A stretch of DNA of 64,000 bases from Nannocystis sp. ILAH1 (GTDB taxonomy: Bacteria > Myxococcota_A > Polyangia > Nannocystales > Nannocystaceae). The position numbers were made by a program, and so were the translations under genes. The notes below the pieces were generated by a model, which was not told where the DNA came from, searched no databases, and was given only the letters and a program-made list of their open reading frames with translations. The stretch covers positions 285,207 to 349,206 of the forward strand of contig NZ_JAPNKD010000014.1 in the NCBI RefSeq assembly GCF_026626585.1, given 5' to 3'. This document shows, piece after piece, positions 4,581 through 40,451 of the stretch. How positions within the stretch are numbered: the first letter of the stretch is position 1; each line of letters begins with the position of its first letter.

Positions 4581-4617
4581 CGGCGCGTGGCCCAGGCTCT
4601 GGGCTTGCGAGCGGTCG

Positions 4618-6205: not shown

Positions 6206-9456
<3,251 letters not shown>

Positions 9457-9463
9457 GGCTTTA

Positions 9464-10195: not shown

Positions 10196-10437
10196 CGTCC
10201 CCGTGTCGCTGCGGGCCCGCGAGCCCGCGGTTAGCGGCCCGGTGGGCCGCGTAGCAAGAGCCCCGCGAGGGGGCTCCATGAGATCGGGCCAGAGGCGCCC
10301 GGGTGCAAGTGGCCCTGTGGGCCGTGAAGCAAAGTTCATGGCCCAGGGGGCCGGGAGGCTGGTGCGTGCGCCGTGAGGGCGAGGCGCCGTGAGGCAGGCC
10401 CGGCGCGTGCGGTGGGGCGGAGGCGCCGCCCGTGGCT

Positions 10438-23599: not shown

Positions 23600-23780
23600 T
23601 CATGGCTTCTGGGACATGTCGTGACGACATGTCCGATCGCAAGCAGTCGCTCGTCTGGCGTCGCCGAGAGTGCGGCCGCCAACGGCGATCCTCAGAGAGA
23701 ACGCGGATGGACCATGCGACATGTCGATAAAGACATGCCGCATGAGACATGTAGCGAGTGACATGTCCCGAAGTCGCAAT
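23600..23780. repeat. Cluster of about 7 GACATGTC palindrome-family elements
   Basis: gggacatgtcgtgacgacatgtccg, then cgacatgtcgataaagacatgccgcatgagacatgtagcgagtgacatgtcccgaag. Confidence 0.55.
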
Positions 23781-25290: not shown

Positions 25291-28200
25291 TCAGGTGGGC
25301 GCGCTGCCGTTGTACATCGCGCTCCACTGCGCGGGGCGGAGGATGGCCCGCGAGGCGAGGTACTGGTCGGCCTGGGCGATCAACGTGGCGCCGCTGGGAC
25401 CCAGCAGCTCGCCGCGGCGGCGACGGGCGCAGGCGGCGTGGACCGGCATGTCGGCGGTGTCGAAGCTGGCGGCGGCGGCCTCGAGGCGGACGAGCGCCTG
25501 CTGGATGTCGCCGTTCTGTGCGGCGATGCCGGCCCGGATCAGCGCGGCCATGGCGACGGAGTCGTGGCGCAGCGCGCGGTCCTCCTCGAGCTGCGCGGCG
25601 TCGCGTTCGGCGGCGGCGAGCAGGACGCCGGCGTTGTGCGGCTGCTCGCGCGCGGCCGCGACGGCGGCGAGGCCCCGCGCGTGGAGGAAGAGGATCCGCT
25701 GGCCCTGCCAGCCGAAGATGTACGAGTTCTCGACGGCGACCCAGTTCTCGGCCAGACGCTGCCAGGCCGAGCCACCTTGCCCTTGGTACAGGTCGCACGA
25801 GGTCTCGAGGAGCAGCGCGAGCATGTGCTGGAAGTGGAAGCCCTCCTTCGACCAGCGGCGCATCGCCCCGCGCACGCGGTCGCGGGCGCTGGTGATGTCG
25901 TCGGCGCCGAGCAGAGCGTAGGCGCTGTAGAGGGCCGACCAGACCTCGCCGCACAGATCGCCGGCGTCTTCCGACTCGCGCAGCCAGGCGTGGGCGCGGT
26001 GGCCGAGCTCGGCCAGCTCGCCGAGCATGAACAGGCCGCGCATCGTGCTCATGCGGGCGAGGTCGAGCTCCCAGCCGACGCCGACGCAGCGGTCGAGCAG
26101 GATCTGGGCGCCCTGCTCGCAGTGCTCGAGCGCGCGGCGCCAGCGGCCGAGCGAGACGGCGGCGATGGCGTCGACGATCTCGCACAGGCCGATGAGGCGC
26201 GGCTCCGAGATCTGTTCGGCGAGGCGGCGCGCCTCCTTGAGCAGGGTGGTGCCGCGGCTGACGGCGTTGGCGGTGCCGCGGCTCATGATCATGGCGCCGA
26301 CGCCGGCGAGCGCGCGGGCGATGCGCTGCGGCTCACCTGTCTGAAGGGCCAGGAGGAGGCCGCGCTGGTAGAAGCTGTAGCCGCGGATCGGATCGACGAA
26401 GGCGAGGCCGACGGCCGCCGACAGGCACACGTCGAGGCGCAGCAGATCGGCCGGCGGGACCTGCTCCTCGCGCACCGCGGCGAAGCCGAGCCCGCGCAAG
26501 CTGAGCTGCGTGGAGCGGGTGATGATCGACATGTTGGCGCGGCCCGGCGTGGCCGGGTAGCCGAGGTCGACCTCGACCAGCGCGGGGCGCAGCATCCGCA
26601 CGCCCTGGTCGATGTTGCCGCTGACGAGGAACTGCTCGCCGGCGCGGCGGCGCAGCTCGAGTGATTCGGCCGGCGAGGCGCCCTCGGCGGCGCTGGCGTA
26701 GACCGGGGCCGCCTCGGCGCTGCGACCGGCCAGCGCGAGCGCGTCGGCGCGACGGCGGAGGAGGGCGCGGCGCTCGTCGTCCGGGAGGTCGGGCGCCCAC
26801 GCGAGGGCGCGGCCGTACAGCTGGGCGGCGCGGTAGAACGCGAGCGCGGCGGCGGCCCGCTCGGCGGCGGCGACGGCGGCGGCGTGCGCCTCCTTCAAGG
26901 CGCCGGCGGCGTGGAGGTGGTGCGCCAGCAGCTCGGGGTCGTCGGCCGACTGCGCGAGCGCGTCGGCGAGGGTGCGGTGCAGCTGCGCCTGGCGCTCGCC
27001 GCCGAGCTGCGCCAGCACGGTGTCGCGGATCCGGTCGTGATAGCATTCGACGGTGTCGCCGCTGCGCGAGGCCAGAGTGCGCAGCAGGTGCTGCGCCTGC
27101 AGCTCGCCGAGGACCGAGCGATCGGTGACGCCCGAGGCCGTGAACGCGAGGCTCGGCGGGATCGGCCGCCCGGCGATGGCGACGATCTCGAGCAGGCTGC
27201 GACCCGCGGCGCGCAGGCCGGCGAGGCGAGTGCGCACGACCGCGTCGAGCGAGACCTCGGCCGGCGCGGCGCCGCGGTGACCGGCGATGTGGCGCGCGAG
27301 CTCCTCGACGAACAGCGGGTTGCCGCCCGACTCGGCGGCGATCCGGCGCGCCTCGGCGCGGGCGCTGTCGCTGTCACGGCCGAGCCGGGCCAGCGCGAGC
27401 TCCTCGGCCTGATCGGGCGAGAGCGGCTCGACCAGCAGGTCGCGCACCAGAGCCTTGAGCTCGGGCCGCGCGCCGAGCCGCCGCAGCTCGCGGAGCATCG
27501 GCGCGTCGTCCTCGTCGATGCGGTACGAGCCGATGAAGAGCATCGCCGGCGGATCGGGCGGCGACAGCAGCTCGGCGAGCAGGCGCGCGCTGTCCTCGTC
27601 GCCCCACTGGAGATCGGCGATCCGCAGCACCAGCGGGCGGCGATCGGCGATCCGCGCCAGCAGCTCCTTGAGCCCGCGGAAGGCCCGACGCCGCGCCTCT
27701 TGCGGGTCGGGGGCGACGAAGTTGCGCTGCGGCAGATCGGCGACCACGGGGGCGCGCGCGAGGACGGGGAACAGCCGCGTGAGCTCGTGGATCTCGCGCG
27801 GCAGCAGGGCCGCGGCCTCCTCCTGCGGGAGGTGGCGGAGGTGCTGCGCGAGCGCGTCGAGGACGCTGTCGAAGGCCTTGTACGGCACGCTCTCGCGCTC
27901 GTAGCAGCGGCCCTGGAGGACGAAGGCGCGGTCGTTGCGGCGCAGCTCGGCGATGAAGCGATCGATGAGCGCGGTCTTGCCGATGCCGGAGCGGCCGCGG
28001 ACGTACACGCACACCGGCGAGCCGGCGAGCGCGAGCTGGAAGGCGTCGCGCATCGCCGACAGCAGGTCGTCGCGGCCGACGAAGCGCGCGCCCGACTCGG
28101 TGGGGCCGAGCGGGGCCTCGCCGAGGGCCTCGCGGATGTCGGCGCCGCCGAGCCGCGCGGCCGGGTCGCGCTGCAGCAGGCCCACGCACAGGGTCGCCAG

Positions 28201-28977
28201 CTCCGGATCGACGTCGGGCACGAGCGCCTGCGGCGGGGCCGGATCTTCGTGCTGCTTGGCGTGGAGGATGGCGAGCGGCGGGCCGGTGAACGGCAGGCGG
28301 CCGGTGAGCGCCTCGTACAGCATGACGCCGATCGCGTACCAGTCGCTCGCGGGCGAGGCCGGGTTGCCGGCGGCCTGCTCCGGCGCCATCGTCGCCGGCG
28401 TGCCGAGCAGGCCGTCCTCGCCGCCCTCGGCGACGTCGTCGGCGGCGAGGCCGAAGTCGAGGATGACGACGCGACCGTCGGCGGTCACCAGCACGTTCGA
28501 CGACTTGAGGTCGCGGTGCAGCTTGCCGGCGGCGTGCAGGGCGCTGACGCCGGCGGCCAGCTGCAGCAGGGCGGGGCGCAGGCGCTCCGGCGGCGGCGCA
28601 GCGCCTGGCTTTTCGGACATGCCCTGACGGACATGGTCGACGAAGCTGACGCCGTCGACGAACTCCATGGTGATGAACCACTCGTCGTCGTGCGAGACGA
28701 GCTGGTGGAGGCTGACGAGGTTGGGGTGCGACAGGCCGGCGGCGCTGCGGAACTCGTTCTTGAGGCGGAACAGCGCGCCCGGGTCGAGCTGGTGCAGGGT
28801 CTTGACCGCGATGGTGCGGCCGCTGTCGCGATCGAGCGCGGCGTAGACGACGCCCATGCTGCCGGAGCCGACCCGACGCACCAGCTCGTAGCGGCCGAGC
28901 GGACGCGGAAGGATGTCCTCAGGGACAGGTGGCGTCACCGGCAGCGAGGCGCGGGCCTGGGGCTCGTCGGGATTCAA
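25291..28977 (-). CDS. STAND-type Ser/Thr protein kinase (kinase + AAA/NTPase + helical repeats), 1228 aa
   Basis: It has Hanks kinase motifs (VGSGSMGVVY, HRDLKSSNVL, DFGLA), then a P-loop (GRSGIGKTAL), then a long Ala/Leu-rich TPR-like region. Confidence 0.85.
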   Translation of the reverse strand: MNPDEPQARASLPVTPPVPEDILPRPLGRYELVRRVGSGSMGVVYAALDRDSGRTIAVKTLHQLDPGALFRLKNEFRSAAGLSHPNLVSLHQLVSHDDEWFITMEFVDGVSFVDHVRQGMSEKPGAAPPPERLRPALLQLAAGVSALHAAGKLHRDLKSSNVLVTADGRVVILDFGLAADDVAEGGEDGLLGTPATMAPEQAAGNPASPASDWYAIGVMLYEALTGRLPFTGPPLAILHAKQHEDPAPPQALVPDVDPELATLCVGLLQRDPAARLGGADIREALGEAPLGPTESGARFVGRDDLLSAMRDAFQLALAGSPVCVYVRGRSGIGKTALIDRFIAELRRNDRAFVLQGRCYERESVPYKAFDSVLDALAQHLRHLPQEEAAALLPREIHELTRLFPVLARAPVVADLPQRNFVAPDPQEARRRAFRGLKELLARIADRRPLVLRIADLQWGDEDSARLLAELLSPPDPPAMLFIGSYRIDEDDAPMLRELRRLGARPELKALVRDLLVEPLSPDQAEELALARLGRDSDSARAEARRIAAESGGNPLFVEELARHIAGHRGAAPAEVSLDAVVRTRLAGLRAAGRSLLEIVAIAGRPIPPSLAFTASGVTDRSVLGELQAQHLLRTLASRSGDTVECYHDRIRDTVLAQLGGERQAQLHRTLADALAQSADDPELLAHHLHAAGALKEAHAAAVAAAERAAAALAFYRAAQLYGRALAWAPDLPDDERRALLRRRADALALAGRSAEAAPVYASAAEGASPAESLELRRRAGEQFLVSGNIDQGVRMLRPALVEVDLGYPATPGRANMSIITRSTQLSLRGLGFAAVREEQVPPADLLRLDVCLSAAVGLAFVDPIRGYSFYQRGLLLALQTGEPQRIARALAGVGAMIMSRGTANAVSRGTTLLKEARRLAEQISEPRLIGLCEIVDAIAAVSLGRWRRALEHCEQGAQILLDRCVGVGWELDLARMSTMRGLFMLGELAELGHRAHAWLRESEDAGDLCGEVWSALYSAYALLGADDITSARDRVRGAMRRWSKEGFHFQHMLALLLETSCDLYQGQGGSAWQRLAENWVAVENSYIFGWQGQRILFLHARGLAAVAAAREQPHNAGVLLAAAERDAAQLEEDRALRHDSVAMAALIRAGIAAQNGDIQQALVRLEAAAASFDTADMPVHAACARRRRGELLGPSGATLIAQADQYLASRAILRPAQWSAMYNGSAPT

Positions 28978-28990
28978 GGTGGAGCGTGGA

Positions 28991-30145
28991 TTATGCCACG
29001 CGCCCGGGCCCCGGGTCGCCGTCCGCGGGCAACGCCCCGGGCGGGACGCCGAGGCCGGGGCCGCAAAGCCGCGGCAGGTCGGGCGCGAGCCGCTCTTGAC
29101 TCCCCGGCGGCATCGGGTCGGCCCGCGTGAGCATGTGGGCGTCGAGGTCGGCCTCGTCGGCGAGGCGGGCCAGGGCGGCGCCGGCGGCGAGCCCGACGCG
29201 GGTCTCGATCATGCAGCCGACGAGCACCCGCAGGCCGTTTTCCCGGGCTGCGGCGATCGTCGCCAGGGCCGGCGAGATCCCGCCGCACTTCATCAGCTTG
29301 ACGTTGATGCCCGCGACCCGGCCCCGCAGCGCCGCCACGTCGTCCGGGCCCTGCACGTCCTCGTCGGCGTAGATCGGCAGGGGGCAGTCGCGCGCGAGCG
29401 CCGCGAGGAGGTCGGGCCGACCCGCAGGCAGCGGCTGCTCGAGCTGCTCGACCCCGAGGTCGATCAGCAGCGGGAGCAGGTCGCGCACGTCGTCCGGGGT
29501 CCAGCCGCCGTTGGCGTCGACCCGCAGGCGGGCGTTCGGGGCGGCGGCGGCGATCGCACGCACGGCCTTGCGGTCGAATTCGCGGCCCTTGCCGAGCTTG
29601 ATCTTGAGCACCGGGAGGTGCGCGGCCGCGGCCGCGCGGGCCGCCATCGCCGGGAGCTCGTCGAGCGCGATCGTGTAAGAGGTGACGGTCGCCCCCGAGG
29701 TGGCCGAAAGGACATGGCGATCGAGACCTGCCCGATCGAGCACGTCGGGGTCGGCCAGCAGCTCGGCCAGCGAGCGGCCGCGGGCGCGCGCGGCCGCGTC
29801 CCACAGGGCGGTGTCGACGGCGCAGCGGGCCGCGGAGTGATCGGGGGCGAGCTCGCGCATGCGCGGGCCGGCGGCCGCGATCGCGCGCGGGTCGGCGAGG
29901 ATCTCGGGGGACAGCTCGGCCGCGATCGCGGTGGCCAGAGGCGCGGCGGCGATCGCCGACTGACCGAGGTAGCGCACGGGCGAGGCCTCGCCGAGGCCGC
30001 GGCGATCGGGGCCGTCCGCTGCGGCGCCGTCCGGGTCGCCCGGGTCAAGGCGCACGAGCAAGCTCGGCAGTTCGCTCACGGTGCCGCGCGACAGGCCGAA
30101 CGGGTGGCGCAGGCGGAGCGTGACGAGGGCAGTGCGCAGGTCCAT
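28991..30145 (-). CDS. Enolase-superfamily dipeptide epimerase / muconate-lactonizing-enzyme-like protein
   Basis: Enolase-superfamily signatures are present: KIKLG, DANGGW, EQP and DE. The start is set at MDLRTALVTLRL, with an alternative further upstream. Confidence 0.7.
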   Translation of the reverse strand: MDLRTALVTLRLRHPFGLSRGTVSELPSLLVRLDPGDPDGAAADGPDRRGLGEASPVRYLGQSAIAAAPLATAIAAELSPEILADPRAIAAAGPRMRELAPDHSAARCAVDTALWDAAARARGRSLAELLADPDVLDRAGLDRHVLSATSGATVTSYTIALDELPAMAARAAAAAHLPVLKIKLGKGREFDRKAVRAIAAAAPNARLRVDANGGWTPDDVRDLLPLLIDLGVEQLEQPLPAGRPDLLAALARDCPLPIYADEDVQGPDDVAALRGRVAGINVKLMKCGGISPALATIAAARENGLRVLVGCMIETRVGLAAGAALARLADEADLDAHMLTRADPMPPGSQERLAPDLPRLCGPGLGVPPGALPADGDPGPGRVA

Positions 30146-30197
30146 GCCGGCCGTCCCGGTGTACCACCGCCGAGGCGCCATTGTATCGTGGCCCCGC

Positions 30198-31709
30198 ATG
30201 CCAGGTCGCCGCCCCGGAGGCTCGCCCCCCAGCGCCGCGCTCGAGCGGCTGTTCGACCGCGACTCCCCGCTCTCCTATGAGGAGCGGCTCGAGGCCCTCA
30301 TCCGCGCGGCGCTGCCGGACCAGGTGCCGCGGCTGTCGTTCGGCGACGAGCTGGCGCGCGGCGGGATGGGCTCGGTGCGGCTCGCGTTCGACGAGGTGCT
30401 GCAGCGGCGGATGGCCGCCAAGACCATGCACGCCAAGACCTACGACCACCTGATCCTCGTGCACGGGTTCTTGCGCGAGGCCCAGGTGACCGGTCAGCTC
30501 GACCACCCCAACATCGTGCCGATCCACGAGCTCGGGCGCGACGAGCAGGGCCAGCTCTACTTCACGATGAAGTTGGTCGAGGGCCAGAGCTTGAAGGCGC
30601 TGATCGGCGGCGAGCCGGCGACCGACCACGAGCGGCTGTTCCACCGCCTCGAGATCTTCGTCAAGGTGTGCGACGCGCTGTCGTTCGCCCACAGCCGCGG
30701 GGTGATCCACTGCGACATCAAGTCGGCCAACGTGATGGTCGGCGCCTACGGCCAGGTCTATCTGATGGACTGGGGCGGGGCCCAGATCCTGCCGCTGCGC
30801 TCCGCCGAGGACGAGGCGCGGTGGGTCCGTGACGCCCTGCCGCCGCTGCCGCCGTCGGAGACCGACGGGCTGGTGTTCGGCACGCCGTCGTACATGTCGC
30901 CGGAGCAGGCCAACAGCCATCCGCTCGACGAGCGCGCCGACGTGTTCTCGATGGGGGCGCTGCTCTACGAGATGATGGTCGGGCGGCCGCCGTACCAGGC
31001 GCGCACGGCGATGGACGCGCTGATCCTCGCGCGCGAGGCGAAGTTCGCCCCGCCCGACAGCCACGTCGCGGTGCCGTTCCCGCGCGAGCTGGTGCGCATC
31101 GTGACCCGGGCGCTGCGCCGCGATCCTGAGGATCGCTACCCGAGCGTGGCGGCGCTGCAGGCCGACATCGTCCGCCTGCTGCGCGGCAGCGGCAGCTTCC
31201 AGACGGTCCGCTTCGCCGCCGGCGACCACGTGATCCGCGAGGGCGAGATCGGCGACGCGGCCTACATCGTGCTGGCCGGCAGGCTCGAGGTCTACAAGCT
31301 CGAGGCGGGGCACCACGTGTCGCTGCGCTGGCTCGGGCCGGGCGACGTGTTCGGCGAGACTTCGATCTTCGCCGCCTCGCGCCGGACCGCCAGCGTGCTG
31401 GTGGTCGAGGACGCGACGCTCACCAAGATCACCAGCGACCTGATCGAGGAGGAGCTGACGTCGATGAAGCCGTGGATGGGCGCGTTCGTGCGCACCCTGG
31501 CGGCCCGCTTCGCCGGCGTCGAGGGCCGCGGGTCGCGGAGCGCCCCCGTCGAGGCCCCGCCGGGCTCGGTGGCGCCGCGCTCGGTCCCGCCGATCCCGCC
31601 GCCGACGAGCTCGGGCGGCGAGAGCGTGATCATCGACATCGACGAGCCGCTCGACGAGAGCCTCGACGGCAGCGACATGCACGCGACGCTGCTGGCCCGC
31701 CGCGACTGA
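30198..31709 (+). CDS. Ser/Thr protein kinase with C-terminal cyclic-nucleotide-binding domain
   Basis: The kinase domain (GGMGSVRLA...HCDIKSANVM...DWGGA) is followed by a cNMP-binding fold (FAAGDHVIREGEIGDAAYIVLAGRLEV...GPGDVFGETSIFAASRRTASVLVVEDA). Confidence 0.8.
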   Translation: MPGRRPGGSPPSAALERLFDRDSPLSYEERLEALIRAALPDQVPRLSFGDELARGGMGSVRLAFDEVLQRRMAAKTMHAKTYDHLILVHGFLREAQVTGQLDHPNIVPIHELGRDEQGQLYFTMKLVEGQSLKALIGGEPATDHERLFHRLEIFVKVCDALSFAHSRGVIHCDIKSANVMVGAYGQVYLMDWGGAQILPLRSAEDEARWVRDALPPLPPSETDGLVFGTPSYMSPEQANSHPLDERADVFSMGALLYEMMVGRPPYQARTAMDALILAREAKFAPPDSHVAVPFPRELVRIVTRALRRDPEDRYPSVAALQADIVRLLRGSGSFQTVRFAAGDHVIREGEIGDAAYIVLAGRLEVYKLEAGHHVSLRWLGPGDVFGETSIFAASRRTASVLVVEDATLTKITSDLIEEELTSMKPWMGAFVRTLAARFAGVEGRGSRSAPVEAPPGSVAPRSVPPIPPPTSSGGESVIIDIDEPLDESLDGSDMHATLLARRD

Positions 31710-31710: not shown

Positions 31711-31800
31711 GGTCGAAAGGGCATGTCCGAAGGGGCATGCTCTGCGGGAAAGGTCTTCCGGGACATGTCCGAGGCGACATGTCCTCGGGGACTTCCCGTC
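31711..31800. repeat. Cluster of palindrome-family elements between convergent kinase and cyclase genes
   Basis: gggcatgtccgaaggggcatgctc ... gggacatgtccgaggcgacatgtcctcgggg. Confidence 0.55.
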
Positions 31801-31806: not shown

Positions 31807-33033
31807 TCACTCGCGCGCGGGCAGGGAGTCGAGCAGCTCTTGCAGCGCGCGGGGCAGGGCGGTGAAGCGGACCACCGCGCGGCCCGGGCCGGCGGCGACG
31901 ACCTTGGCGTAGGCGTCGACGCCGGGAAGGGCGGCGAGCACGAGCTTGAGATCGGCGCGCAACGGCAGCGGGGCGGCGACCCGCAGCTCGGCGTTGTGGC
32001 GCTCGTCGTGGGCCACGAGCAGCGCCGGGAACTCCTGGCCGCCGGTGTCCTTGCCCTCGAGCGCGGTGAACACGAGCGGCTGCGGCTCGGCCAGGACCCG
32101 CCACGCGGCGGCCTCTTCGATCATGTGGATGGCGAACGGGCCGTCGACGCCGGTGACGTCGTGGATCGTGATCGGCTCGCGCACGCCCTTGGGCCGGACC
32201 TCGAAGCAGCCGCGGGTGCGGAGGCGGTCGCCGAGGGCCCGTGCGGCCGACTCGGAGATCAGGACCTGGCCGCCGACGGTGTAGCTCTCGATGCGCGACG
32301 TCAGGTTGACGTGGCGGCCGACCACGCCGTACTTGGCGCGGCGGTTCGAGCCGATGTTGCCGACCACGACCTCGCCGGTGTGGACGCCGATGCCCATCTC
32401 GAGCGCGGGCAGGCCGTGCTCGGCCAGCGCGGCGTTGACGCGGCCCATCGCCCGCTGCATGGCGATCGCACAGGCGACCGCGCGCTCGGGGTGGTCCTCC
32501 TGCGGCACCGGGGCGCCGAACACCGCGAGGATGGCGTCGCCGATGAACTCGTTGATCGAGCCGCGGTACTCGCCGATCACGTCGGCCATGGCGCCGAGGT
32601 AGATGTTGAGGATCGCCACCACCTGCTCGGGGCCCAGGCCCTCGCAGAGGGTCGAGAAGCCGCGCAGGTCGGAGATCAGGATCGTCAGGGTGCGCCGCTC
32701 GCCGCCGAGCTGGCGGCCCTCCGGCGAGGCGAGCAACGTATTGACGACCTCGTCGGTGACGTGGCGGCCGAACACCTGGCGGATGAAGGTGTTGCGCAGC
32801 TCGAGCTCGACCACCAGCGCCTCGACTTGCTCGATCTTGACTGCCAGCTGCTCCTCGATCTCGTTGGCGTGCTCGAGCGTCGAGTCGTGCAGCAGCACGA
32901 GGTCGTCGTGCTCGGCCTGCAGGGTGGCGACGGCGGCCATGAACTCGGCGCGCGCGGCCGGGTCGGCCAGGAGCTCGGCCGCGGCGTCGGGGTCGGCGAG
33001 GGCTCGCCGCCAGCGCGGGTCATCCGTGAGCAT
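31807..33033 (-). CDS. Class III adenylate/guanylate cyclase with N-terminal coiled-coil stalk
   Basis: It has the CHD core (RRTLTILISDLRGFS, FIGDAILAVFG, IGVHTGEVVVGNIGS, RAKYGVVGRHVNLTSRIE) and an N-terminal heptad-rich helix. Confidence 0.85.
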   Translation of the reverse strand: MLTDDPRWRRALADPDAAAELLADPAARAEFMAAVATLQAEHDDLVLLHDSTLEHANEIEEQLAVKIEQVEALVVELELRNTFIRQVFGRHVTDEVVNTLLASPEGRQLGGERRTLTILISDLRGFSTLCEGLGPEQVVAILNIYLGAMADVIGEYRGSINEFIGDAILAVFGAPVPQEDHPERAVACAIAMQRAMGRVNAALAEHGLPALEMGIGVHTGEVVVGNIGSNRRAKYGVVGRHVNLTSRIESYTVGGQVLISESAARALGDRLRTRGCFEVRPKGVREPITIHDVTGVDGPFAIHMIEEAAAWRVLAEPQPLVFTALEGKDTGGQEFPALLVAHDERHNAELRVAAPLPLRADLKLVLAALPGVDAYAKVVAAGPGRAVVRFTALPRALQELLDSLPARE

Positions 33034-33045
33034 GCGGCGGCCGGC

Positions 33046-33420
33046 TCAGTCGAGGGCGATGACGATCGTCGGCAGGAACTTCTTGAGGTTGGGCAGCGAC
33101 TTGCCCTGCCACGGGATGGTCGACGAGCCGTGGACCTTGATCTCGGTCTCGCCCTTCTTGCGCGCGGCGATGGCGAACTTGTAGAGCATGTTGATGCCCG
33201 AGCTGTTGAGGAACTGCAGCTCGGTCATGCGCAGGGCGAGCGCGGGGTTGGCCAGCAGGACGCGGTCGAGCAGGTCCTCGATCGGCTTGTACTCGCTGGT
33301 GCTGAGGCGGAGCACGCCCTCGAAGTGGACCGTGCGCGCGGGCGCGTCGAACCACACGCGATAGCCGGGGCCTTTGATGTCGGTGTCCGACCCGGAGGGT
33401 CGCGTAGTTGTGTCCGTCAT
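33046..33420 (-). CDS. DUF1987 (SiaC-like) partner-switch protein
   Basis: The product is 124 aa. It matches the SiaC pattern, with LQFLNSSGINMLYKF versus SiaC LLYLNTSSIKAMMDIL. Its ATG overlaps the upstream stop (ATGA) and it lies 12 nt before the cyclase start. Confidence 0.7.
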   Translation of the reverse strand: MTDTTTRPSGSDTDIKGPGYRVWFDAPARTVHFEGVLRLSTSEYKPIEDLLDRVLLANPALALRMTELQFLNSSGINMLYKFAIAARKKGETEIKVHGSSTIPWQGKSLPNLKKFLPTIVIALD

Positions 33421-33980
33421 GACGATTTCACCTGTAGCCGGGCGGCGGTCTTGAGGAGCGCGTTGTCAGGATTGCCAGGGGCGGGGTCGAAGCGCCAGCC
33501 GAGCCGGGCCTTGTAGTCCGACAGCATGGTGAGAAAGCCCAGGCCCGAGGTCGTGAGTTCGGGGTTGGCGGCGTTCTCCTCGACCCGCTGCATCAGGAGC
33601 TCGGCGGGATCGCCGTCGAGCAGCTCGGCGAACTTGATACGCAGGCCGTCGACCGCGTCGCCGCAGACCTGGTTGCTGACGACGACCACGAACTCGCCCG
33701 CCTCGACGCCCGCGTCGATGACGACGGTGCCGCCGGCGCAGAACTTGACCGCGTTCTCGATCAGCTCGTTGAGCACGTAGCCGACGCTGCCGACGAAGTC
33801 GCGCCGCTCGGCCTCCTCGGTGAGCCCGCCCTCGCCGACGTCGGCGAAGTACTCGGCGAAGAAGTCGGCCGCCACGCTGCACTGGTTCCACTTGACCGGG
33901 AACGCCCCGGGGTAAAACGTCAGCATGACGCGCGGTCCAGCGTCGGTGGGCTCTTTGTACTCGCCGATGATGCCGTCCAT
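33417..33980 (-). CDS. RsbW/SiaB-like GHKL serine protein kinase
   Basis: It has a GHKL N-box (VLNELIENAVKF) and G-box (TSGLGFL). The product is 187 aa with a GGAG SD. Confidence 0.65.
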   Translation of the reverse strand: MDGIIGEYKEPTDAGPRVMLTFYPGAFPVKWNQCSVAADFFAEYFADVGEGGLTEEAERRDFVGSVGYVLNELIENAVKFCAGGTVVIDAGVEAGEFVVVVSNQVCGDAVDGLRIKFAELLDGDPAELLMQRVEENAANPELTTSGLGFLTMLSDYKARLGWRFDPAPGNPDNALLKTAARLQVKSS

Positions 33981-34003
33981 ACTCTCCGTCCGCCTAGAGC
34001 GCC

Positions 34004-36364
34004 TCAGCGCCGCTTGATCACCACCGTCGTGATGTCGTCGAAGACCTTCTGCGCGCCGATGAAGCGCATGACGTCGTCGACGATCGCCTGCTTGATCTCC
34101 GCCGCCGGCCGCTCGTGGACCCGGCGCACCACCTCGCACAGGCGATCGATGCCGTACAGCTCGCCGTGGATGTCCTCCGCCTCGGTTATGCCGTCAGTGT
34201 ACAGGACGACGACATCGCCCGGCGACAGGCGCAGCTCGGTGCGGGCGATGAACGCGGCGATGTCGACCTCGAGCCCCACCGGCATGCCGAGGTCGACCGT
34301 GTCGATGCGCTCGATCGAGCCGCCCCGCCGGACCACCACCGCCTCCTCGTGCTGTCCGGTGAGGCGGAGCACGCCCTGCGCGTAGTCGAGGAGCACCAGC
34401 GTCGCGGTGCGGTCGAGGCCGACGCGCTGGATGTTCTGATAGAGGACCTTGTTGACGATGTTGAGGAAGCGCTCCGCGTCGCGCTCCTCGGCGGCCTGCA
34501 GGGTGCGCACGGCCGTCTGGATCATCAGCATCAGCACGCCGCTCTCGAGGCCGTGGCCGGTGACGTCGCCGATGCCGATCTTGACGCCGTCGCCGGCGCG
34601 CAGGACGTCGTAGTAGTCGCCGCCGACCTCGTCCGCGGGCCGCATGTAGCCGGCGACGTCCAGGCCCTCGAGCTCGGCCAGCTCGCGCTCTTGCGGCAGC
34701 ACCATGAGCTGCAGCCGGCGGGCGACGTCGAGCTCGGCGCCGAGGCGCAGGTTCTCCTGCTTGAGCCGCTCGTTGAGCGCCATGATCTCGCGGGAGGCCC
34801 GCTGCAGCTCGGCGGTGCGCTGCTCGACCAGCCGCTCGAGATCGTGCGTATACGCGCGGATCTCGGCGGCCATCTGGTTGAAGGCGCGGCCGAGCGCGCC
34901 GAACTCGTCGTCGCTGCGCACGTCGACCCGCACGTCGTAGTCCTTCTGCGCGATCTTGCCGGCGCCCGCGGCGAGGTCGACCAGCGCGCCGGTCATGCGT
35001 CGCGAGACCAGGAGGATCCCGAACATCACGACCGCGAGCGCGACCAGAGTGATGACGATCTGGCTGATGAGGATCCCGCGGCTGCTGGCGGCGATGGTGT
35101 CCTGCGCCTTGTGCAGCGAGGCGTAGATCTCGGCGGCAGGCACGACGAAGCCGAGGGTCCAGCGCTCCGGCACGATGTCGGTCGAACCCGACCAGACGTT
35201 GAACGGATCGAGCCGCTTGAGCACGACGACGTAGTCCTTGCCGCCGATCGCTACCGGGTCGCGGTAGTCGACGGTATCGCCGCTGGGCAGCGCGAGCGCC
35301 TGGATCGCCGGGTCGCGCGACTGGTGCAGGAACTGTTGGAAGATGTCGACGCCGGCACCCGACGAGCCGCTGGCCTGCTGCAGGCCGAGGATCTCCTGGC
35401 CGTCGGCGTTGACGGCGAACACGTTGCCGTTCTCCTGGGCGAGGAAGGCGAAGCCCGAGCCGGCGAGCTCGAGGTCCTGGACGTAGCGGATCAATTGACC
35501 GAGGGTGACGTCGACGCCGACGGCCCCGGCGAAGCGCGCGCGCGAGGCGTCCCACAGCGGCTGGAACATGGTCATGATGGCCCCGCTGCCGCCCGCGTCG
35601 GTGTACGGCGCGGTGCCGGTGACCTGCGCCGCCGGGTCGCGCATGCGCGCGGGATCGGCGAGCCAGCGCCGCCAGCCGTCGACGATGCCGGGGAAGTAGA
35701 AGCTCCAGAACGGGCTCTTGTTGTGGCCGGGATAGAGCTGGTCGGCGTGGCCCGCAGCGTCGGCGTAAGGGGCGATCCGCAGGTACTCGGCGCCCTCCGG
35801 GCCGATGAAGTACATGGCCTGCTTCTCGGCCCCGTACTGCAGCAGCGCGGGCAGCAGCAGGTCGAGCAGGGCGGTCTGCTCGACTGCGGCGCGGACCTCG
35901 GGCTTGATGTCCCGAAGGCCAGGTTGCTTCGGGTCGGCCGGCGCGTGCAGGTAGCCCCACACTGCCACAGCCGACGGCTCACCGGCCTCGGTCTGCGACC
36001 AGTCGCCGCGCGGGTCATAGACGAGGGCGTCGCGCAGCGGCCCGGCAGCAGCGGCGGCGGCGGTCAGCGGCGCAAGGTCGGCCTGCCGATCGATGAGCGT
36101 CTGGGTGACTGCAGCGAGCACGCCGAGCTCGGCCCGCGCCCGCCCGCGCAGGAATTCGACGCGCTGCGCGGTGTCCTCGATGTGGTTGGTGAGGTACTCG
36201 CGGCTGGCCCGCTCGAGGCCCTTGCGGATCTCCTCCGATGCGTCGCCGCCGAGCACGCGGATGCCCTTCAGCGAGGCCAGCGCCGCGAGCGTCAGCCCGA
36301 TCACCAGCCCGACCCCGGCAACGAGGACGAACTTGGTGCGGAACCTTGAGCCCGTGGTGGCCAT
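34004..36364 (-). CDS. Membrane-bound sensor phosphatase: periplasmic sensor domain - HAMP - PP2C/SpoIIE (SiaA-like architecture)
   Basis: Two TM helices bracket a roughly 300 aa periplasmic domain. A HAMP domain (DDEFGALGRAFNQMAAEIR) precedes a C-terminal PP2C/SpoIIE domain (GDYYDV...GDVTGHG...LYTDGITEA). Confidence 0.8.
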   Translation of the reverse strand: MATTGSRFRTKFVLVAGVGLVIGLTLAALASLKGIRVLGGDASEEIRKGLERASREYLTNHIEDTAQRVEFLRGRARAELGVLAAVTQTLIDRQADLAPLTAAAAAAGPLRDALVYDPRGDWSQTEAGEPSAVAVWGYLHAPADPKQPGLRDIKPEVRAAVEQTALLDLLLPALLQYGAEKQAMYFIGPEGAEYLRIAPYADAAGHADQLYPGHNKSPFWSFYFPGIVDGWRRWLADPARMRDPAAQVTGTAPYTDAGGSGAIMTMFQPLWDASRARFAGAVGVDVTLGQLIRYVQDLELAGSGFAFLAQENGNVFAVNADGQEILGLQQASGSSGAGVDIFQQFLHQSRDPAIQALALPSGDTVDYRDPVAIGGKDYVVVLKRLDPFNVWSGSTDIVPERWTLGFVVPAAEIYASLHKAQDTIAASSRGILISQIVITLVALAVVMFGILLVSRRMTGALVDLAAGAGKIAQKDYDVRVDVRSDDEFGALGRAFNQMAAEIRAYTHDLERLVEQRTAELQRASREIMALNERLKQENLRLGAELDVARRLQLMVLPQERELAELEGLDVAGYMRPADEVGGDYYDVLRAGDGVKIGIGDVTGHGLESGVLMLMIQTAVRTLQAAEERDAERFLNIVNKVLYQNIQRVGLDRTATLVLLDYAQGVLRLTGQHEEAVVVRRGGSIERIDTVDLGMPVGLEVDIAAFIARTELRLSPGDVVVLYTDGITEAEDIHGELYGIDRLCEVVRRVHERPAAEIKQAIVDDVMRFIGAQKVFDDITTVVIKRR

Positions 36365-36384
36365 GCGGTCGAGCGGCGAAACCG

Positions 36385-37557
36385 TCAGCGCTCCGGTTTG
36401 CGGCCGGAGGCGACGTAGATCGGCCAGGTGGCGAAGCCGCGGCGGCTGCGGATCGCGTAGACGTGATCGCGGAAGCCCATGCGCAGGCGCTCGACCACCT
36501 CCGGCGGCTGCTGCGTGGCGGTCGACAGCTCGCCGGTGACGTACTCCTCCCAGCTCTCGATCACCCGCGCGAAGTCGTCGATCGCGGTGTTGTTGTTGGT
36601 GATCGGGATCTGCTCCATGCGCACGTCCTCGAAGCCCATGTCGGTCAGCAGCGAGAACATCTTGGGCCCGAAGTTCATGTCCATGCCGAGGCTCTGGGCG
36701 ATCTTCACGGCGTGCTGGTAGGTCCACGCGACCGACTCGTGGCGCGGGTAGCCGTAGTTGTGCACCGTCATCTCGTTGGTCAGGTAGACCCGACCGCCGG
36801 GTTTACAGATCCGCACCAGCTCGCGCAAGATGCTCGACGGATCGTTGAAGATCTGCAGCGCCAGGCGCGAGGTGACGAAGTCGAAGCTGTTCGACGGCAA
36901 GAACAGGTGGGTCGCGTCGCCGAACTGATACTCGATGTCGGTGATGCCGAACTCGCGGGCCATCTGCTGCGCGTATTGAAGGAAGGGCCGCGAGTGGTCG
37001 ACGCCGACGATGTACGCGGGCTCGAACTCCTTGTAGACGAGCACCGCGAAGTCGCCGATCCCGCAGCAGATGTCGGCGATCCGCATGCGCTTGCCGAGGC
37101 CGTGGCGGCGCAGCAGCTCGCGCTCGTGCGACCACACGATGTTGGTCTGGGTGCGCAGGACCGGCACGAGCTGGTCGTTCTCGATGACGCCCTGGCCGGG
37201 GTAAAACGCCTTGTCGTACTGCTCGACGATGGTGTTGCCGAACTGCGCGCCGAGGAAGCCGAAGCGCAGCGGCGCCCACGGGACGACGCTCGAGACGACG
37301 AGCTTGAGCTTGAGGCTCGGGTGGCGCTCGGCGCAGGCGGCGATGAAGCGCGCGAGCTCGAGGAAGCCGGTGTGGTTGAGGTAACGCAGGCGCTTGAAGT
37401 TGAGGTAGAGGACGCCGCGCACGGCGTCGGCGGCGTGGTCGAGGCGCGCCCGCACCGGCGCGAACGCCTCGGGGCCGGCGGGCCGCAGCGTCCCCTCGAG
37501 CGCGACCTCCTGGTCGTTCTCGCTGAAGCGGATCGAAAACGGTTGCTCGTTCTCCAT
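36385..37557 (-). CDS. Fusion protein: N-terminal DUF1987/SiaC-like domain + class I SAM-dependent methyltransferase
   Basis: The N-terminal 110 aa show the DUF1987-like pattern (FSIRFSENDQEVALEG...LYLNFKRLRYLNHTGFLEL). MTase motifs I (IADICCGIGDFA), post-I (VGVDHS) and III (CKPGGRVYL) follow. Confidence 0.65.
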   Translation of the reverse strand: MENEQPFSIRFSENDQEVALEGTLRPAGPEAFAPVRARLDHAADAVRGVLYLNFKRLRYLNHTGFLELARFIAACAERHPSLKLKLVVSSVVPWAPLRFGFLGAQFGNTIVEQYDKAFYPGQGVIENDQLVPVLRTQTNIVWSHERELLRRHGLGKRMRIADICCGIGDFAVLVYKEFEPAYIVGVDHSRPFLQYAQQMAREFGITDIEYQFGDATHLFLPSNSFDFVTSRLALQIFNDPSSILRELVRICKPGGRVYLTNEMTVHNYGYPRHESVAWTYQHAVKIAQSLGMDMNFGPKMFSLLTDMGFEDVRMEQIPITNNNTAIDDFARVIESWEEYVTGELSTATQQPPEVVERLRMGFRDHVYAIRSRRGFATWPIYVASGRKPER

Positions 37558-37569
37558 ACCCAGCTCGGC

Positions 37570-38076
37570 TCACTCGTGCGGGACAGTAAGGACGATGACG
37601 CCGGCGCCGTCGCCCTCGCGCAGCGTGAGCTCGACGCCGTGGAGCGCGACCAATTCGAGCAGCCCGACCTCGGCCGGCGGACGCAGGATCATCGACTCGA
37701 ACTCGGCCTCGTAGCGCGCGCGCGCGTCCGCCGGCGCGACCCGCCCGAGGTCGTCGCGCAGCCGCTGCGCGAGCGCCTCGTCGGTCGGTATCGTCAGCTC
37801 GGCGATCACGTGCTCGTCCGTGCGCCCGACCTCGACCACGATCTCGCCCTCGCTCGGCCGGGCGCGGAACACGTACTCGAGCACCTCGTTGAGATAGGTC
37901 GAGAGGCGCGTGGTCAGCTGCTCGGGATCGAAGCGATCGGAGGCGACGAAGCGCGCGATGTAATCGGCCAGCCGCTGGCAGTGCGTCCAGCTGTCATATA
38001 GCCCGCGGACGCTGATCCGGAGGGTGAGGATCGGGCTCGGGCCGGGAGGTGAGGGGGGCGCGAGGTCGGAGGTCAT
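37570..38076 (-). CDS. Small GHKL/RsbW-like protein (tentative second SiaB-like kinase)
   Basis: The 168 aa product has an N-box-like LNEVLEYVFR, then a beta-rich segment. It is the first gene of the operon. The family call is tentative. Confidence 0.4.
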   Translation of the reverse strand: MTSDLAPPSPPGPSPILTLRISVRGLYDSWTHCQRLADYIARFVASDRFDPEQLTTRLSTYLNEVLEYVFRARPSEGEIVVEVGRTDEHVIAELTIPTDEALAQRLRDDLGRVAPADARARYEAEFESMILRPPAEVGLLELVALHGVELTLREGDGAGVIVLTVPHE

Positions 38077-38345: not shown

Positions 38346-40451
38346 ATGACAACGACCAAGACGCTCGCCATCAAAGTGTTTTACGGCGATCAGCTCGTCG
38401 ATACGCAGACGCTGACGCAAGACGTTATCAAGATCGGAAAACTGAAGAGTAGCCACATCTGTCTGGATGACGAGGCCGTGGCCCGCATGCACGCCGTGAT
38501 CGAGGTGTCCGGCGAGGAGGTGCGGGTGATCGATCTCGGGAGCGCGGCGGGCACCGTGCTCAACGGCCAGCGGATCGACAAGAACGCGGTGCTGCACGAC
38601 GGCGACGCCTTGAACTTCGGGCCGTACCGCCTCGAGGTCGGCTTCGCCAAGCAGCAGGTCGCGGCTGCGCCGGCGCCGGCGCAGGTGGCCGCGCCGGTGG
38701 CCGTGGCGGCGGCCGCGGTCGCGGCGGCTCCGCTCGCTGCGGCGCCGATGGCGACGCGGGCCCCGATCCAGATCGACCTCAGCGAGGTCGAGGTTCAGAG
38801 CGGCTCGCGGGTGGCCGAGGTCGTGGCGATGTACGGCTCGACGGTGCTCGACGTGCAGCACGTCGGCCAGCTGAAGAACCGCAAGTCGCAGGCGCCCATT
38901 TTCCTCGCCATCGGCGGCGTGATGCTGGTCGCCGGCGTGGGCGTGTTCTTCAGCGACGTGAACCAGGACTGGGCCGGCTACGGCAAGAAGGTCCAGGACT
39001 CGATCGAGCAGGGCACGCCGCGCCCGACCCCGCCCGGAAACGGCCTGGCGGCGATCGGCATGCTGCTGGCGATCGCGGGCCTCGTGCCGTTCAGCATGGG
39101 CCTCATCCGCACCGGCGACTACGTCAACAAGAACTTCACGATCGGCGAGGGCCACGGCGCGTCGTTCCACGTGCCGCCCGCCGGCCTGCCCGAGCCCAAC
39201 GGCTTCCCGCTGGTCCGCGGCAGCGACCACGAGTTCGCGCTCAACTTCACGCAGAACATGAGCGGCGAGGTCACCTTCGACGGCCAGACGATCACGCTGC
39301 AGCAGCTGGTCGCGACCGGCCGCGCGGGCTCGCAGGGCTCGTCGTTCAGCTTCCCGCTGCCGCCCGGAGCGACGGCGCGGGTCAAGTACCAGGACGTCAC
39401 CTTCTACGTGAACTCGGTCGCGCCGGGCGCGGTGATCAAGGGCGGCAGCGAGACCGACAAGCCGTTCTGGATCTACAACGGCGCGTCGTTCGTGGTCATC
39501 GGCAGCTTGCTGGTGCTCACGCACCTGATCCCCAACGAGGCCGGCAACCTCAGCCTCGACGAGATGATGGAAGAGAACCGCTTCGTCGGTTACCTCAACC
39601 AGCCCGACAAGCCGCCGGAGGAGGAGGAGCCGCCGCCGGAGGACATGGAGAACTCCGACGACGAGGCCGGCGGCACCGGTCAGCGCCACAAGGGCGAGGA
39701 GGGCAAGATGGGCAAGCCCACCTCGAAGAGCAAGTCGGGCCTCTACGCCATGAAGGGCCCCAAGGACGCCATCCCGCAGATGGCCCGTAACTTCGACCCC
39801 GACATGGCCGCGCGCCAGGCCGGCATCCTCGGGGTGATGAGCGCCGAGAGCGGCCACTTCCTCGCCTCGCCGTACGGCGGCGCGTTCGCGGTCGGCAACG
39901 ACGACGCGGACGTGTGGGGCGGCCTCACCGGCACGGAGGTCGGCGAGGCGTACGGCGTCGGCGGCCTCGGCCTGGTCGGCACCGGCCGCGGCGGCGGTGG
40001 CACCGGCGAGGGCACGATCGGCCTCGGCAACACGGGCCTCATCGGCAAGGGCGGCGGCGGCGGCACGGGCTCCGGCTACGGCCGTGGCGCTGGCGCCGGC
40101 TTCGGCGGCCGCGGCACTCGCGTCCCGACGGTCCGTCAGGCCAAGGCCGAGGTCCAGGGCGCGCTCGACAAGGACATCATCCGCCGCATCGTCCGCGCGC
40201 ACATCAACGAGGTCCGCTACTGCTACAACCAGGCCCTCGCCCGCGACCCCAACGCCAAGGGCCGCGTCGCCGTCCAGTTCACCATCGGCGGCACCGGCAA
40301 GGTGCCCACCGCGGTGGTCCAGGAGAGCACGATGAAGGACCCGGCGGTCGGCTCCTGCATCGCCCAGGCGGTCAAGCGCTGGACCTTCCCCAAGCCGGAG
40401 GGCGGCGGCTCGGTCATCGTCTCGTACCCGTTCGTCCTCGAGCCGGGTTGA
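38346..40451 (+). CDS. FHA-domain protein with AgmX/PglI-type C-terminal domain (myxobacterial)
   Basis: The N-terminal FHA domain (IKIGKLKSSHICLDDEAVARMHAVIE...VIDLGSAAGTVLNGQRI) is followed by a TM region, a Gly-rich segment and a C-terminal domain (IIRRIVRAHINEVRYCYNQAL...VQFTIGGTGKV...SYPFVLEP). Confidence 0.75.
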   Translation: MTTTKTLAIKVFYGDQLVDTQTLTQDVIKIGKLKSSHICLDDEAVARMHAVIEVSGEEVRVIDLGSAAGTVLNGQRIDKNAVLHDGDALNFGPYRLEVGFAKQQVAAAPAPAQVAAPVAVAAAAVAAAPLAAAPMATRAPIQIDLSEVEVQSGSRVAEVVAMYGSTVLDVQHVGQLKNRKSQAPIFLAIGGVMLVAGVGVFFSDVNQDWAGYGKKVQDSIEQGTPRPTPPGNGLAAIGMLLAIAGLVPFSMGLIRTGDYVNKNFTIGEGHGASFHVPPAGLPEPNGFPLVRGSDHEFALNFTQNMSGEVTFDGQTITLQQLVATGRAGSQGSSFSFPLPPGATARVKYQDVTFYVNSVAPGAVIKGGSETDKPFWIYNGASFVVIGSLLVLTHLIPNEAGNLSLDEMMEENRFVGYLNQPDKPPEEEEPPPEDMENSDDEAGGTGQRHKGEEGKMGKPTSKSKSGLYAMKGPKDAIPQMARNFDPDMAARQAGILGVMSAESGHFLASPYGGAFAVGNDDADVWGGLTGTEVGEAYGVGGLGLVGTGRGGGGTGEGTIGLGNTGLIGKGGGGGTGSGYGRGAGAGFGGRGTRVPTVRQAKAEVQGALDKDIIRRIVRAHINEVRYCYNQALARDPNAKGRVAVQFTIGGTGKVPTAVVQESTMKDPAVGSCIAQAVKRWTFPKPEGGGSVIVSYPFVLEPG

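Follow-up and report, generated by a model that had tools for sequence, protein, structure and literature searches.

Which enzyme is controlled when the components of a phosphorylation-driven partner switch are encoded side by side with a nucleotidyl cyclase, and through which contact? A six-gene operon of the myxobacterium Nannocystis sp. ILAH1 raises this question. The operon lies in a 64,000-nucleotide stretch of contig NZ_JAPNKD010000014.1 (positions 285,207 to 349,206 of the forward strand; GC content about 70 per cent), which is the DNA that we analyzed and refer to as the window. It is read on the minus strand from position 38076 to position 31807, and we designate its genes g1 to g6 in this order. 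With moderate confidence, we propose that the operon encodes a partner switch of the slr1658/slr1659 families with a Cya2-type guanylate cyclase (g6) as its output, and that a small adaptor protein (g5) docks on the N-terminal stalk of this cyclase.

The genes, taken from a list of open reading frames (ORFs), are closely packed. Read from the sequence, the gaps from g1 to g6 are 12, 20, 23, −4 (an ATGA overlap between g4 and g5), and 12 nt. A preliminary description of this DNA had reported six packed minus-strand genes with gaps of 12–23 nt and one ATGA overlap, and its coordinates and spacings were confirmed exactly. We set the start of g3 at the ATG at 36364, which gives a product of 786 amino acids (aa), and that of g4 at the ATG at 33980, which is preceded by GGAGAG and gives 187 aa. 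A scan of the operon for sigma-70-like promoters returned none, but such a scan is uninformative in myxobacterial DNA of 70 per cent GC; a terminator scan returned terminator-like sites on the opposite strand only, at chance level.

We surveyed 80 species loci, collected by similarity to g5 (at least 585 matches in data with one genome per species), together with eight metagenome or genome loci, and searched their six-frame ORFs with the domains of the window. A core of five genes resembling g1 to g5 recurs in 50 of the 80 species loci, and the gene arrangement is therefore far beyond chance. The core loci span Myxococcota, Alphaproteobacteria, Verrucomicrobiota, Chloroflexota, Desulfobacteraceae, and Gammaproteobacteria. 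Within the genus, g5 is 97 per cent identical to its homolog in N. pusilla and 95 per cent identical to that in N. exedens. The exact g5 sequence gave no entry in a contig index.

At the center of the core are g4 (33417..33980, minus strand; K4 below), a putative GHKL-type Ser kinase of the slr1658 family and structural analog of SiaB, and g5 (33046..33420, minus strand; 124 aa; S5 below), an adaptor of the slr1659 family with a STAS/SiaC fold. Both products of this adjacent, overlapping gene pair pass curated NCBIfam cut-offs: g4 scores 143.6 bits with the slr1658 superfamily model (of the set NF047703 or NF047705; cut-off of 100 bits), and g5 scores 125.2 bits with the slr1659 superfamily model (cut-off of 100 bits). 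The family names come from Synechocystis genes and already stand on public Nannocystis and Mesorhizobium records. The slr1659 family comprises 676 clusters at 50 per cent identity with E-values of at most 1e-3 (373 with E-values of at most 1e-10), and some of its members occur in tandem or fused to a kinase. A literature search found no paper on the function of slr1658, slr1659, or Pfam DUF6272.

Sequence-level membership of the operon proteins in the Sia and DUF1987 families, which we considered as a candidate assignment, is excluded by the model scores; the proteins fall into the separate slr1658 and slr1659 families instead. Specifically, neither g4 nor g5 has a significant Pfam match, and g5 does not match DUF1987 (PF09345) even at an E-value of up to 10. 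The sole Pfam match of g5 is STAS (PF01740; E-value = 0.013), at 15.7 bits against a cut-off of 22.6 bits, and some of its homologs have precomputed STAS matches. With the SiaB family model NF038262, g4 reaches 23.3 bits (E-value = 3.8e-5) against a cut-off of 85 bits. Sequence and profile searches of PDB for relatives of SiaC and SiaB gave merely weak matches to STAS proteins or to the N-box of histidine kinases, and did not find SiaB.

Comparison of predicted structures gives a different result. The AlphaFold2 (AF2) model of g4 (predicted local distance difference test [pLDDT] score of 92) has SiaB (6kko_A) as its best match among 350,542 PDB chains (E-value = 7.7e-5; template modeling [TM] scores of 0.62/0.67 over 171 aligned columns), followed by SpoIIAB, UsfX, and RsbW. 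For the AF2 model of g5 (pLDDT of 91.7), the top seven PDB fold matches are all SiaC (among them 6kko_D, 7e6g_F, 6kkp, and 6k4f), with TM scores of 0.62–0.67, and the STAS anti-sigma antagonists of the SpoIIAA/RsbV type rank second. The best matches of both models come from one SiaB–SiaC crystal, 6KKO. Judged by these models, the g4/g5 system is a distant structural relative of SiaABC built on the same plan, and not a member of the SiaABC family. The preliminary description had called g4 an RsbW-like and SiaB-like GHKL protein, which holds for its N-box and its fold but not for the SiaB sequence model. The same description had called g5 DUF1987/SiaC-like and had named a failure to match such models as grounds for abandoning the assignment; the DUF1987 part is indeed lost, and the likeness to SiaC survives at the level of the fold.

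The predicted phospho-acceptor of g5 is Ser73 (codon 33202-33204, minus strand), which lies in the motif LQFLNSSGIN. In the AF2 model, F-L-N-S73-S-G occupies the junction between a strand and helix alpha2, and the helix begins at residue 73. This serine is invariant in all 76 unique relatives that we collected from 89 loci. It aligns to T68 within the SiaC peptide LLYLNTSSIK, and T68 is the SiaC phospho-acceptor at the N-terminus of helix alpha2 (PMC7647112). The segment alignment made in the preliminary description is thereby borne out, with both residues at the same place in the fold. In g4, the N-box NELIENAVKF is present, and N71, E72, E75, N76, K79, N103, and E134 are invariant in the family; in the G2 box S145-G-L-G148, G148 is invariant, and the remaining three positions are at least 90 per cent conserved. 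Because the canonical DxGxG G1 box is missing, the kinase activity predicted for g4 is not certain.

The second-ranked fold matches raise the possibility that the operon encodes a classical anti-sigma/anti-anti-sigma switch for a sigma factor encoded elsewhere, with the cyclase as a bystander. After SiaC and SiaB, the models of g5 and g4 do match SpoIIAA/RsbV-type antagonists and SpoIIAB/RsbW/UsfX, respectively, and the g5 family profile, which aligns FLNSSG to FMDSSG of SpoIIAA, weakly matches RsfB and SpoIIAA sequences. We nevertheless regard this explanation as very improbable: neither the operon nor the Pfam-annotated called genes of loci L001–L008 include a sigma-factor gene, the conserved outputs that carry the stalk motif described below are enzymes, and the STAS score of g5 stays under its threshold.

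The phosphatase arm of the switch would be provided by g3 (34004..36364, minus strand), a membrane sensor phosphatase. From its N-terminus, the protein consists of a first transmembrane helix (residues 10–33), a periplasmic dCache-like domain of about 390 aa, a second transmembrane helix (428–458), a HAMP domain (Pfam E-value = 4.4e-13), a coiled-coil linker, and a SpoIIE-type PP2C domain (Pfam SpoIIE, E-value = 1.6e-39). The dCache_1 match is weak (27.9 bits) and lies under its cut-off, and the periplasmic domain is conserved among the core loci. All PP2C metal motifs are intact (GGDYYD at residue 581, DVTGHG at 600, YTDGITE at 722, and DDITTVV at 776). The SiaA architecture that had been attributed to g3 is correct as a layout, but the NCBIfam SiaA equivalog model NF038263 gives only 116.4 bits against a cut-off of 700 bits, in an alignment confined to the HAMP and PP2C half of the protein.

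The last gene, g6 (31807..33033, minus strand), encodes a soluble class III cyclase of 408 aa. It matches Guanylate_cyc (PF00211) with 91.8 bits against a cut-off of 21.9 bits (E-value = 5e-26), and is composed of an N-terminal stalk (N6 below), a cyclase transducer element (FGRH, residues 88–91), a catalytic domain (115–283), and a C-terminal extension (291–408). Over residues 108–304, g6 shares 57 per cent identity with the Synechocystis Cya2 catalytic domain (PDB 2W01), and six diagnostic residues are the same in the two proteins: the metal-binding D122 and D166, the transition-state residues N243 and R247, and the specificity pair E162/G236. Cya2 is an established guanylate cyclase, which the substitution E488K alone converts into an adenylate cyclase (PMC5995499). 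Because g6 has the Cya2-type E162/G236 pair and is homologous to Cya2, its product is predicted to be cyclic guanosine monophosphate (cGMP). The E/G pair is common to all Nannocystis-type g6 orthologs, whereas in other phyla the stalk-bearing cyclases carry K/T or K/D pairs and are adenylate-cyclase-like. The earlier assignment of g6 to the class III nucleotidyl cyclases is upheld, as all catalytic residues are present, and the proposed output of cAMP or cGMP is narrowed to predicted cGMP by the specificity pair.

Matches of g6 to PADLOC PycC models (best E-value = 1.7e-28), together with an adjacent protein that has a cyclic nucleotide monophosphate (cNMP)-binding domain, would also be expected if g6 were a Pycsar-type pyrimidine cyclase in an anti-phage locus, with the neighboring protein as its effector. 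We rejected this defense reading, to which we give almost no credence. PycC proteins are class III cyclase homologs, so that the match is generic; g6 shares 57 per cent identity and its specificity residues with a guanylate cyclase; the neighbor is a Ser/Thr kinase and not a transmembrane or TIR effector; and the operon, with its sensory components, is conserved across the sampled Nannocystis genomes and across phyla.

A receiver domain (REC)-fused paralog, P0209, is 54 per cent identical to g6 over g6 residues 68–393. From this range, the transducer element, the catalytic domain, and the C-terminal extension form a cassette, in which residues 1–67 are an exchangeable input module that takes the place of REC. 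A further cyclase-like protein occurs in three Nannocystis sp. loci (L004, L005, and L013), in a second, divergent operon (at about 520–5090, minus strand) with the order GRAS-like (methyltransferase-fold) protein, 177-aa protein, SpoIIE, kinase-like, adaptor-like, and cyclase-like protein. Its cyclase domain has no N6 and is probably catalytically dead, with Thr/Asp in place of the specificity pair and Ser/His in place of the transition-state residues.

Is the cyclase wired to the switch or merely adjacent to it? The candidate docking helix is the core motif of N6, a 20-residue acidic segment upstream of the transducer element (g6 residues 44–63, DLVLLHDSTLEHANEIEEQL; 32845..32904, minus strand) of the form DLxLLx5EHx3IExxL, with the consensus e.dDL.LL.e....EH...iE..L and a mean net charge of −5.3 over the 20-mer. 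The g6 N-terminus detects a neighboring N6 gene in 49 of the 80 species loci. N6 is fused to a class III cyclase in 16/80 of the loci and to a short PP2C domain in 31/80, as well as to GGDEF (L007/L008) and HisKA (L058 and L065). The motif therefore stands N-terminal to cyclase homology (CHD), PP2C, GGDEF, and HisKA domains alike, and always beside slr1658/slr1659 genes. When formulated as a regular expression, it has 58 matches in the six-frame ORFs of 89 loci (1.56 million residues), and all 58 fall in N6-labeled ORFs; shuffled sequences gave none, and the window has a single match. The strongest argument for such wiring comes from sequence comparison: N6 is a dedicated, exchangeable input module that accompanies slr1658/slr1659 genes, which suggests g6 as the regulated output. 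The co-occurrence that the preliminary description had proposed to look for was found, since class III cyclases lie beside slr1658/slr1659 genes in those 16 species loci, in several phyla. A minimal operon, GGDEF-K4-S5-PP2C, occurs in a Magnetovibrionaceae genome (L007) and is a direct counterpart of SiaABCD.

Adjacency without regulation, in which the cyclase responds to something else, such as a small ligand or its C-terminal extension, and the switch has other targets, for example the methyltransferase encoded by g2, is improbable when weighed against these data. Some observations do agree with it: 31 of the 80 loci have no nearby N6 gene, the N6 gene is variously placed and oriented (upstream, downstream, or divergent), the five core genes are conserved in loci without a cyclase, and the C-terminal extension of 118 residues has no known function. 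However, all 58 motif matches lie beside slr1658/slr1659 genes, and N6 is found on four unrelated catalytic domains and in the place of REC in a close paralog, a pattern typical of a dedicated input module. In the window, moreover, the cyclase gene is 12 nt from g5.

We therefore return to a switch that controls g6, for which the following mechanism can be envisaged. Ser73 of g5 would be phosphorylated by g4. A periplasmic ligand, acting through HAMP, would set the phosphatase activity of g3, which would remove the phosphate from g5. The unphosphorylated, basic g5 would then leave the acidic kinase and dock on the acidic N6 stalk of a g6 dimer, by analogy with SiaC on the SiaD stalk. Docking could shift the register or the dimerization of the stalk and transducer element and thereby switch cGMP synthesis, and the cGMP would be read by a Ser/Thr kinase with a cNMP-binding domain that is encoded next to the operon. 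The partner switch gating cyclic mononucleotide synthesis that had been suggested earlier is thus retained in outline, with SiaABC-type logic now supported by the folds of g4 and g5, by Ser73, by the intact cyclase, and by co-occurrence.

Charge, structural precedent, and the distribution of adaptor variants favor the adaptor as the protein that binds the stalk. The kinase g4 has a net charge of −14, and g5 is basic, with an isoelectric point (pI) of 9.3. Across families, K1 (the g1 family), K4, and N6 are acidic, with mean net charges of −9 to −11, whereas S5 and S2 (the adaptor domain of g2) are basic, with median pI values of 8.2 and 9.2, respectively. Since the kinase-like families and the stalk are acidic and the adaptors are basic, the adaptor is the favored candidate for a protein that moves back and forth between kinase and stalk. 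The closest structural relatives, SiaB and SiaC, point the same way, because there the adaptor sits on the stalk of SiaD: unphosphorylated SiaC binds it with alpha2 and alpha3 and slots T68 between the helices of the stalk (PMC8457831). Finally, a highly conserved basic alpha3 motif of the adaptors, WQGKSLPNLKKF, is missing in the divergent second-tier adaptor S5', which occurs in two contexts, either paired with a cyclase-like protein that has no N6 or downstream of N6-PP2C. The absence of the motif from an adaptor that, in one of its two contexts, is away from an N6 output also favors docking by the adaptor.

A possible though less favored arrangement has the kinase-like protein contact the output. 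Here g4 (or g1) would bind N6, either activating the cyclase after its release from the adaptor, in the way that RsbT acts on RsbU, or inhibiting it until the dephosphorylated adaptor sequesters g4 or g1, just as sigma factors are held by RsbW and SpoIIAB. The precedent is RsbT, a GHKL kinase paralog that binds the N-terminal domain and linker of RsbU, induces a coiled coil, and activates the phosphatase (PMC12143880); the same authors proposed the linker logic of RsbU for diguanylate cyclases and histidine kinases as well (PMC12143880). N6 is fused to this same set of outputs (PP2C, GGDEF, and HisKA), with the cyclase catalytic domain in addition. Moreover, the fold matches of g4 that follow SiaB are sigma-binding anti-sigma kinases (SpoIIAB, UsfX, and RsbW), and pure binding would be a sensible role for the extra pseudokinase g1. 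On the other hand, K4, K1, and N6 are all strongly acidic, which makes a contact between kinase and N6 electrostatically unfavorable; the proteins closest in structure, SiaB and SiaC, belong to a system in which the adaptor takes the stalk; and N6 outputs occur in loci without g1 and g2 (L007, L067, and L075), so that g1 at least is dispensable.

Docking of g5 on the stalk of a guanylate cyclase therefore remains our preferred reading, and several points weigh against it. The RsbT–RsbU case is a precedent in which the kinase-like partner binds the N-terminal linker (PMC12143880). The contact between g5 and the stalk is argued by analogy, charge, and co-occurrence alone, and the helicity of the stalk from the alignment of g6, from residue 55, to the linker of 6FHT. 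No score with the Sia, DUF1987, or STAS models reaches the curated threshold. In g4, the canonical G1 box is missing, and the invariant Asn103 appears, by eye, to lie near its position. The nucleotide specificity of g6 is read from two residues and homology. Lastly, an N6 gene within 8 kb is missing from 31 of the 80 loci, and the cyanobacterial slr1658/slr1659 pairs stand alone, so that the module is not tied to one output.

Such cyanobacterial pairs are exemplified by Pseudanabaena locus L084 (7383–8342), where, as in similar loci, the slr1658/slr1659 genes are found among the housekeeping genes trpA, cobW, and efp. No phosphatase or N6 gene lies within 8 kb in loci of this type, and partners of the lone pair must therefore be encoded elsewhere. 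A different arrangement is seen in Sorangium and Polyangium (L016–L026 and L028–L033; for example, L019 at 7413–10300). There, the kinase and the adaptor share one ORF of about 313 aa, which is followed by N6-PP2C and then by a second, divergent kinase/adaptor pair (motif FCNSNGF, with an acidic alpha3). This arrangement looks like a two-tier partner-switch cascade. Kinase–adaptor fusions of about 310 aa were also found in a broad protein search.

The operon begins with a second, paralogous pair. The product of g1 (37570..38076, minus strand; 168 aa; K1 above) is an acidic (net charge of −12), pseudokinase-like paralog of g4, and that of g2 (36385..37557, minus strand; 390 aa) joins an slr1659-like adaptor domain (S2; residues ~1–112) to a class I S-adenosylmethionine (SAM) methyltransferase (~156–262). 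Neither g1 (34.8 bits against a cut-off of 100 bits with the NCBIfam slr1658 model) nor the N-terminus of g2 (42.9 bits) passes the family cut-offs, but profile comparison with hhalign relates the K1 family to the K4 family (probability of 98.3 per cent; E-value = 1.8e-14) and S2 to S5 (probability of 97.7 per cent; E-value = 2.4e-12). In g1, the second, Mg-binding Asn of the N-box is absent (NEVLEYVFR), as is the Gly-rich G2 box/lid (GLLELVALHG). The acceptor position of the g2 adaptor domain is occupied by His, and by Asn or His in 42 of 49 relatives; the domain is therefore not expected to be phosphorylatable. The methyltransferase domain matches Pfam Methyltransf_11/25/31 (E-values of 4e-19 to 8e-18) and has motif I, DICCGIGD, from residue 162.

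Because g1 and S2 have both lost features needed for phosphotransfer, the two would form a pair that only binds, and the sequences point to a binding-only, non-catalytic pair fused to an apparently intact SAM methyltransferase. This second pair probably contributes either a methylation output or a modulatory input to the same switch. The initial view of g1 as a small GHKL-like protein is right as to kinship with g4 but not as to an intact kinase, and that of g2 as a DUF1987-like domain with a SAM methyltransferase is right for the enzyme and needs amendment for the adaptor domain, which is slr1659-like.

What could read the predicted cGMP? Converging on g6 from the other side, with 97 nt between them, is a plus-strand gene (30081..31709; start codon unrefined) for a Ser/Thr protein kinase (Pfam Pkinase, E-value = 3.6e-37) with a C-terminal cNMP-binding domain (cNMP_binding, E-value = 9.7e-18). 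Its domain arrangement resembles that of cGMP-dependent protein kinase (PKG), and its translation contains the phosphate-binding cassette FGETSIFAASRRTASV, which includes RRTAS. The adjacency of kinase and cyclase is kept in every locus with a readable E/G pair and a captured downstream flank (the window, L001, L002, L004, L005, and L009–L014), even where other flanking genes differ. None of the K/T- or K/D-type cyclase loci of the survey has an adjacent cNMP-binding kinase. We infer from this conservation, which is within one lineage, that the kinase is a plausible cGMP receptor. The locus points to cGMP signaling, which is rare in bacteria, in the myxobacteria, and the kinase would be a candidate cGMP-dependent receptor.

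Taken to its limit, the operon and its neighbor may constitute a complete, eukaryote-like bacterial cGMP pathway, leading from an extracellular ligand via PP2C to a phospho-adaptor on a universal acidic N6 "plug" helix, and from there to the guanylate cyclase and the PKG-like kinase. Within it, g1 and g2 could bring the methyltransferase to the switch, for example for methylation of stalk Glu residues as an adaptation like that of chemoreceptors by CheR. We offer this fuller picture as a speculation that we would not expect to hold in its entirety.

Other genes flank the operon. Divergent from g1 is a gene for a 700-aa protein (38349-40451, plus strand) with an N-terminal FHA domain (Pfam E-value = 2e-16) and a long Gly-rich C-terminal region in its translation, which could be a reader of Ser/Thr phosphorylation. 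On the other side are two minus-strand genes that also accompany the operon, in synteny, in metagenome locus L001: one for a Ser/Thr kinase of 1228 aa with an AAA_16 domain (25291-28977), and one for an enzyme of the mandelate racemase/muconate-lactonizing type (28991-30199). A palindromic element, GACATGTCC, with the core GGACATGTCC, has 20 copies in the window, against 0.44 expected, at 31761-31784, 17494, 21536, 22452-22503, 23301, 23612-23768, 40918, 45677, 47424, and 52654. The copies between the convergent stop codons of the cNMP-binding kinase gene and g6 form a stable hairpin (−42.3 kcal/mol; z = −3.8). The element looks like a REP-like (repetitive extragenic palindromic) dispersed repeat or a bidirectional terminator.

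How does the system compare with those already described? In kind it is known, being a partner switch of a PP2C phosphatase, a GHKL kinase, and a STAS-fold adaptor. To our knowledge, the characterized outputs of such switches are sigma factors, secretion regulators, and diguanylate cyclases. We found no paper on a partner switch that controls a class III (cAMP/cGMP) cyclase, in agreement with the preliminary description, whose author knew of no such case. The closest characterized system is SiaABCD of Pseudomonas aeruginosa. Both operons encode a membrane-bound sensor phosphatase with HAMP and PP2C domains, a small kinase of the GHKL type, and an adaptor of about 120 aa; in both, the adaptor has its acceptor at the N-terminus of helix alpha2, within a common N-S/T-S triad, and the output is a nucleotide-cyclizing enzyme with an N-terminal stalk. 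Unlike in SiaABCD, sequence-level Sia membership fails for all three components here, the output is class III (GTP to cGMP, as predicted) and not a GGDEF enzyme like SiaD, the motif on the stalk is another, acidic one, and there are extra genes for a pseudokinase and an adaptor–methyltransferase. The charge polarity also looks reversed: those SiaC residues that are named in the published study as touching the stalk are mostly acidic and pair with basic residues of the SiaD stalk, whereas in the Nannocystis operon it is the adaptor that is basic and the stalk that is acidic.

With the slr1658/slr1659 families (NF047703 and NF047705; DUF6272), g4 and g5 share membership by curated cut-offs, but the cyanobacterial archetype is a stand-alone pair of two genes, and here the pair is embedded in a six-gene sensory operon with an output enzyme. 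The comparison assigns a likely function to families that have been named but have no described function. The RsbR/S/T stressosome with RsbU, RsbV–RsbW, and SpoIIAA–SpoIIAB are likewise built from a phospho-adaptor with a STAS fold, a Ser kinase of the GHKL type, and a PP2C phosphatase, and in RsbT–RsbU a partner protein activates the output by binding its N-terminal helical linker (PMC12143880). The operon differs from these systems in having neither a sigma factor nor a stressosome-type RsbR, in the adaptor as the favored stalk binder, and in its cyclic mononucleotide output. Cya2 (PDB 2W01; chimera 6FHT) shares with g6 the FGR(Y/H) transducer element, the C-terminal extension, and the metal, transition-state, and E/G residues. 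However, Cya2 is membrane-bound and under extracellular CHASE2 control (PMC5995499), whereas g6 is soluble and carries no N-terminal module other than the N6 stalk. STAS-fused enzymes regulated by phosphorylation are known, for example the STAS-glycosyltransferase All4160 of Anabaena (PMC13555669), and g2 resembles it in fusing an adaptor-fold domain to an enzyme, beside a PP2C phosphatase and a kinase. Unlike in All4160, the phosphorylatable Ser is gone from the g2 adaptor domain, and the kinase motifs are gone from its partner g1; any control would therefore act through binding and not through phosphorylation.

Set against these systems, what is new is the class III (predicted guanylate) cyclase as an output, the N6 motif across four output classes, the pseudokinase/adaptor–methyltransferase pair, and the candidate cGMP-dependent kinase. 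The N6 motif would account for the use of a single adaptor/kinase pair with four classes of enzymes, and it links the mechanism of SiaC and SiaD to the idea of an exchangeable coiled-coil linker that was proposed for RsbU.

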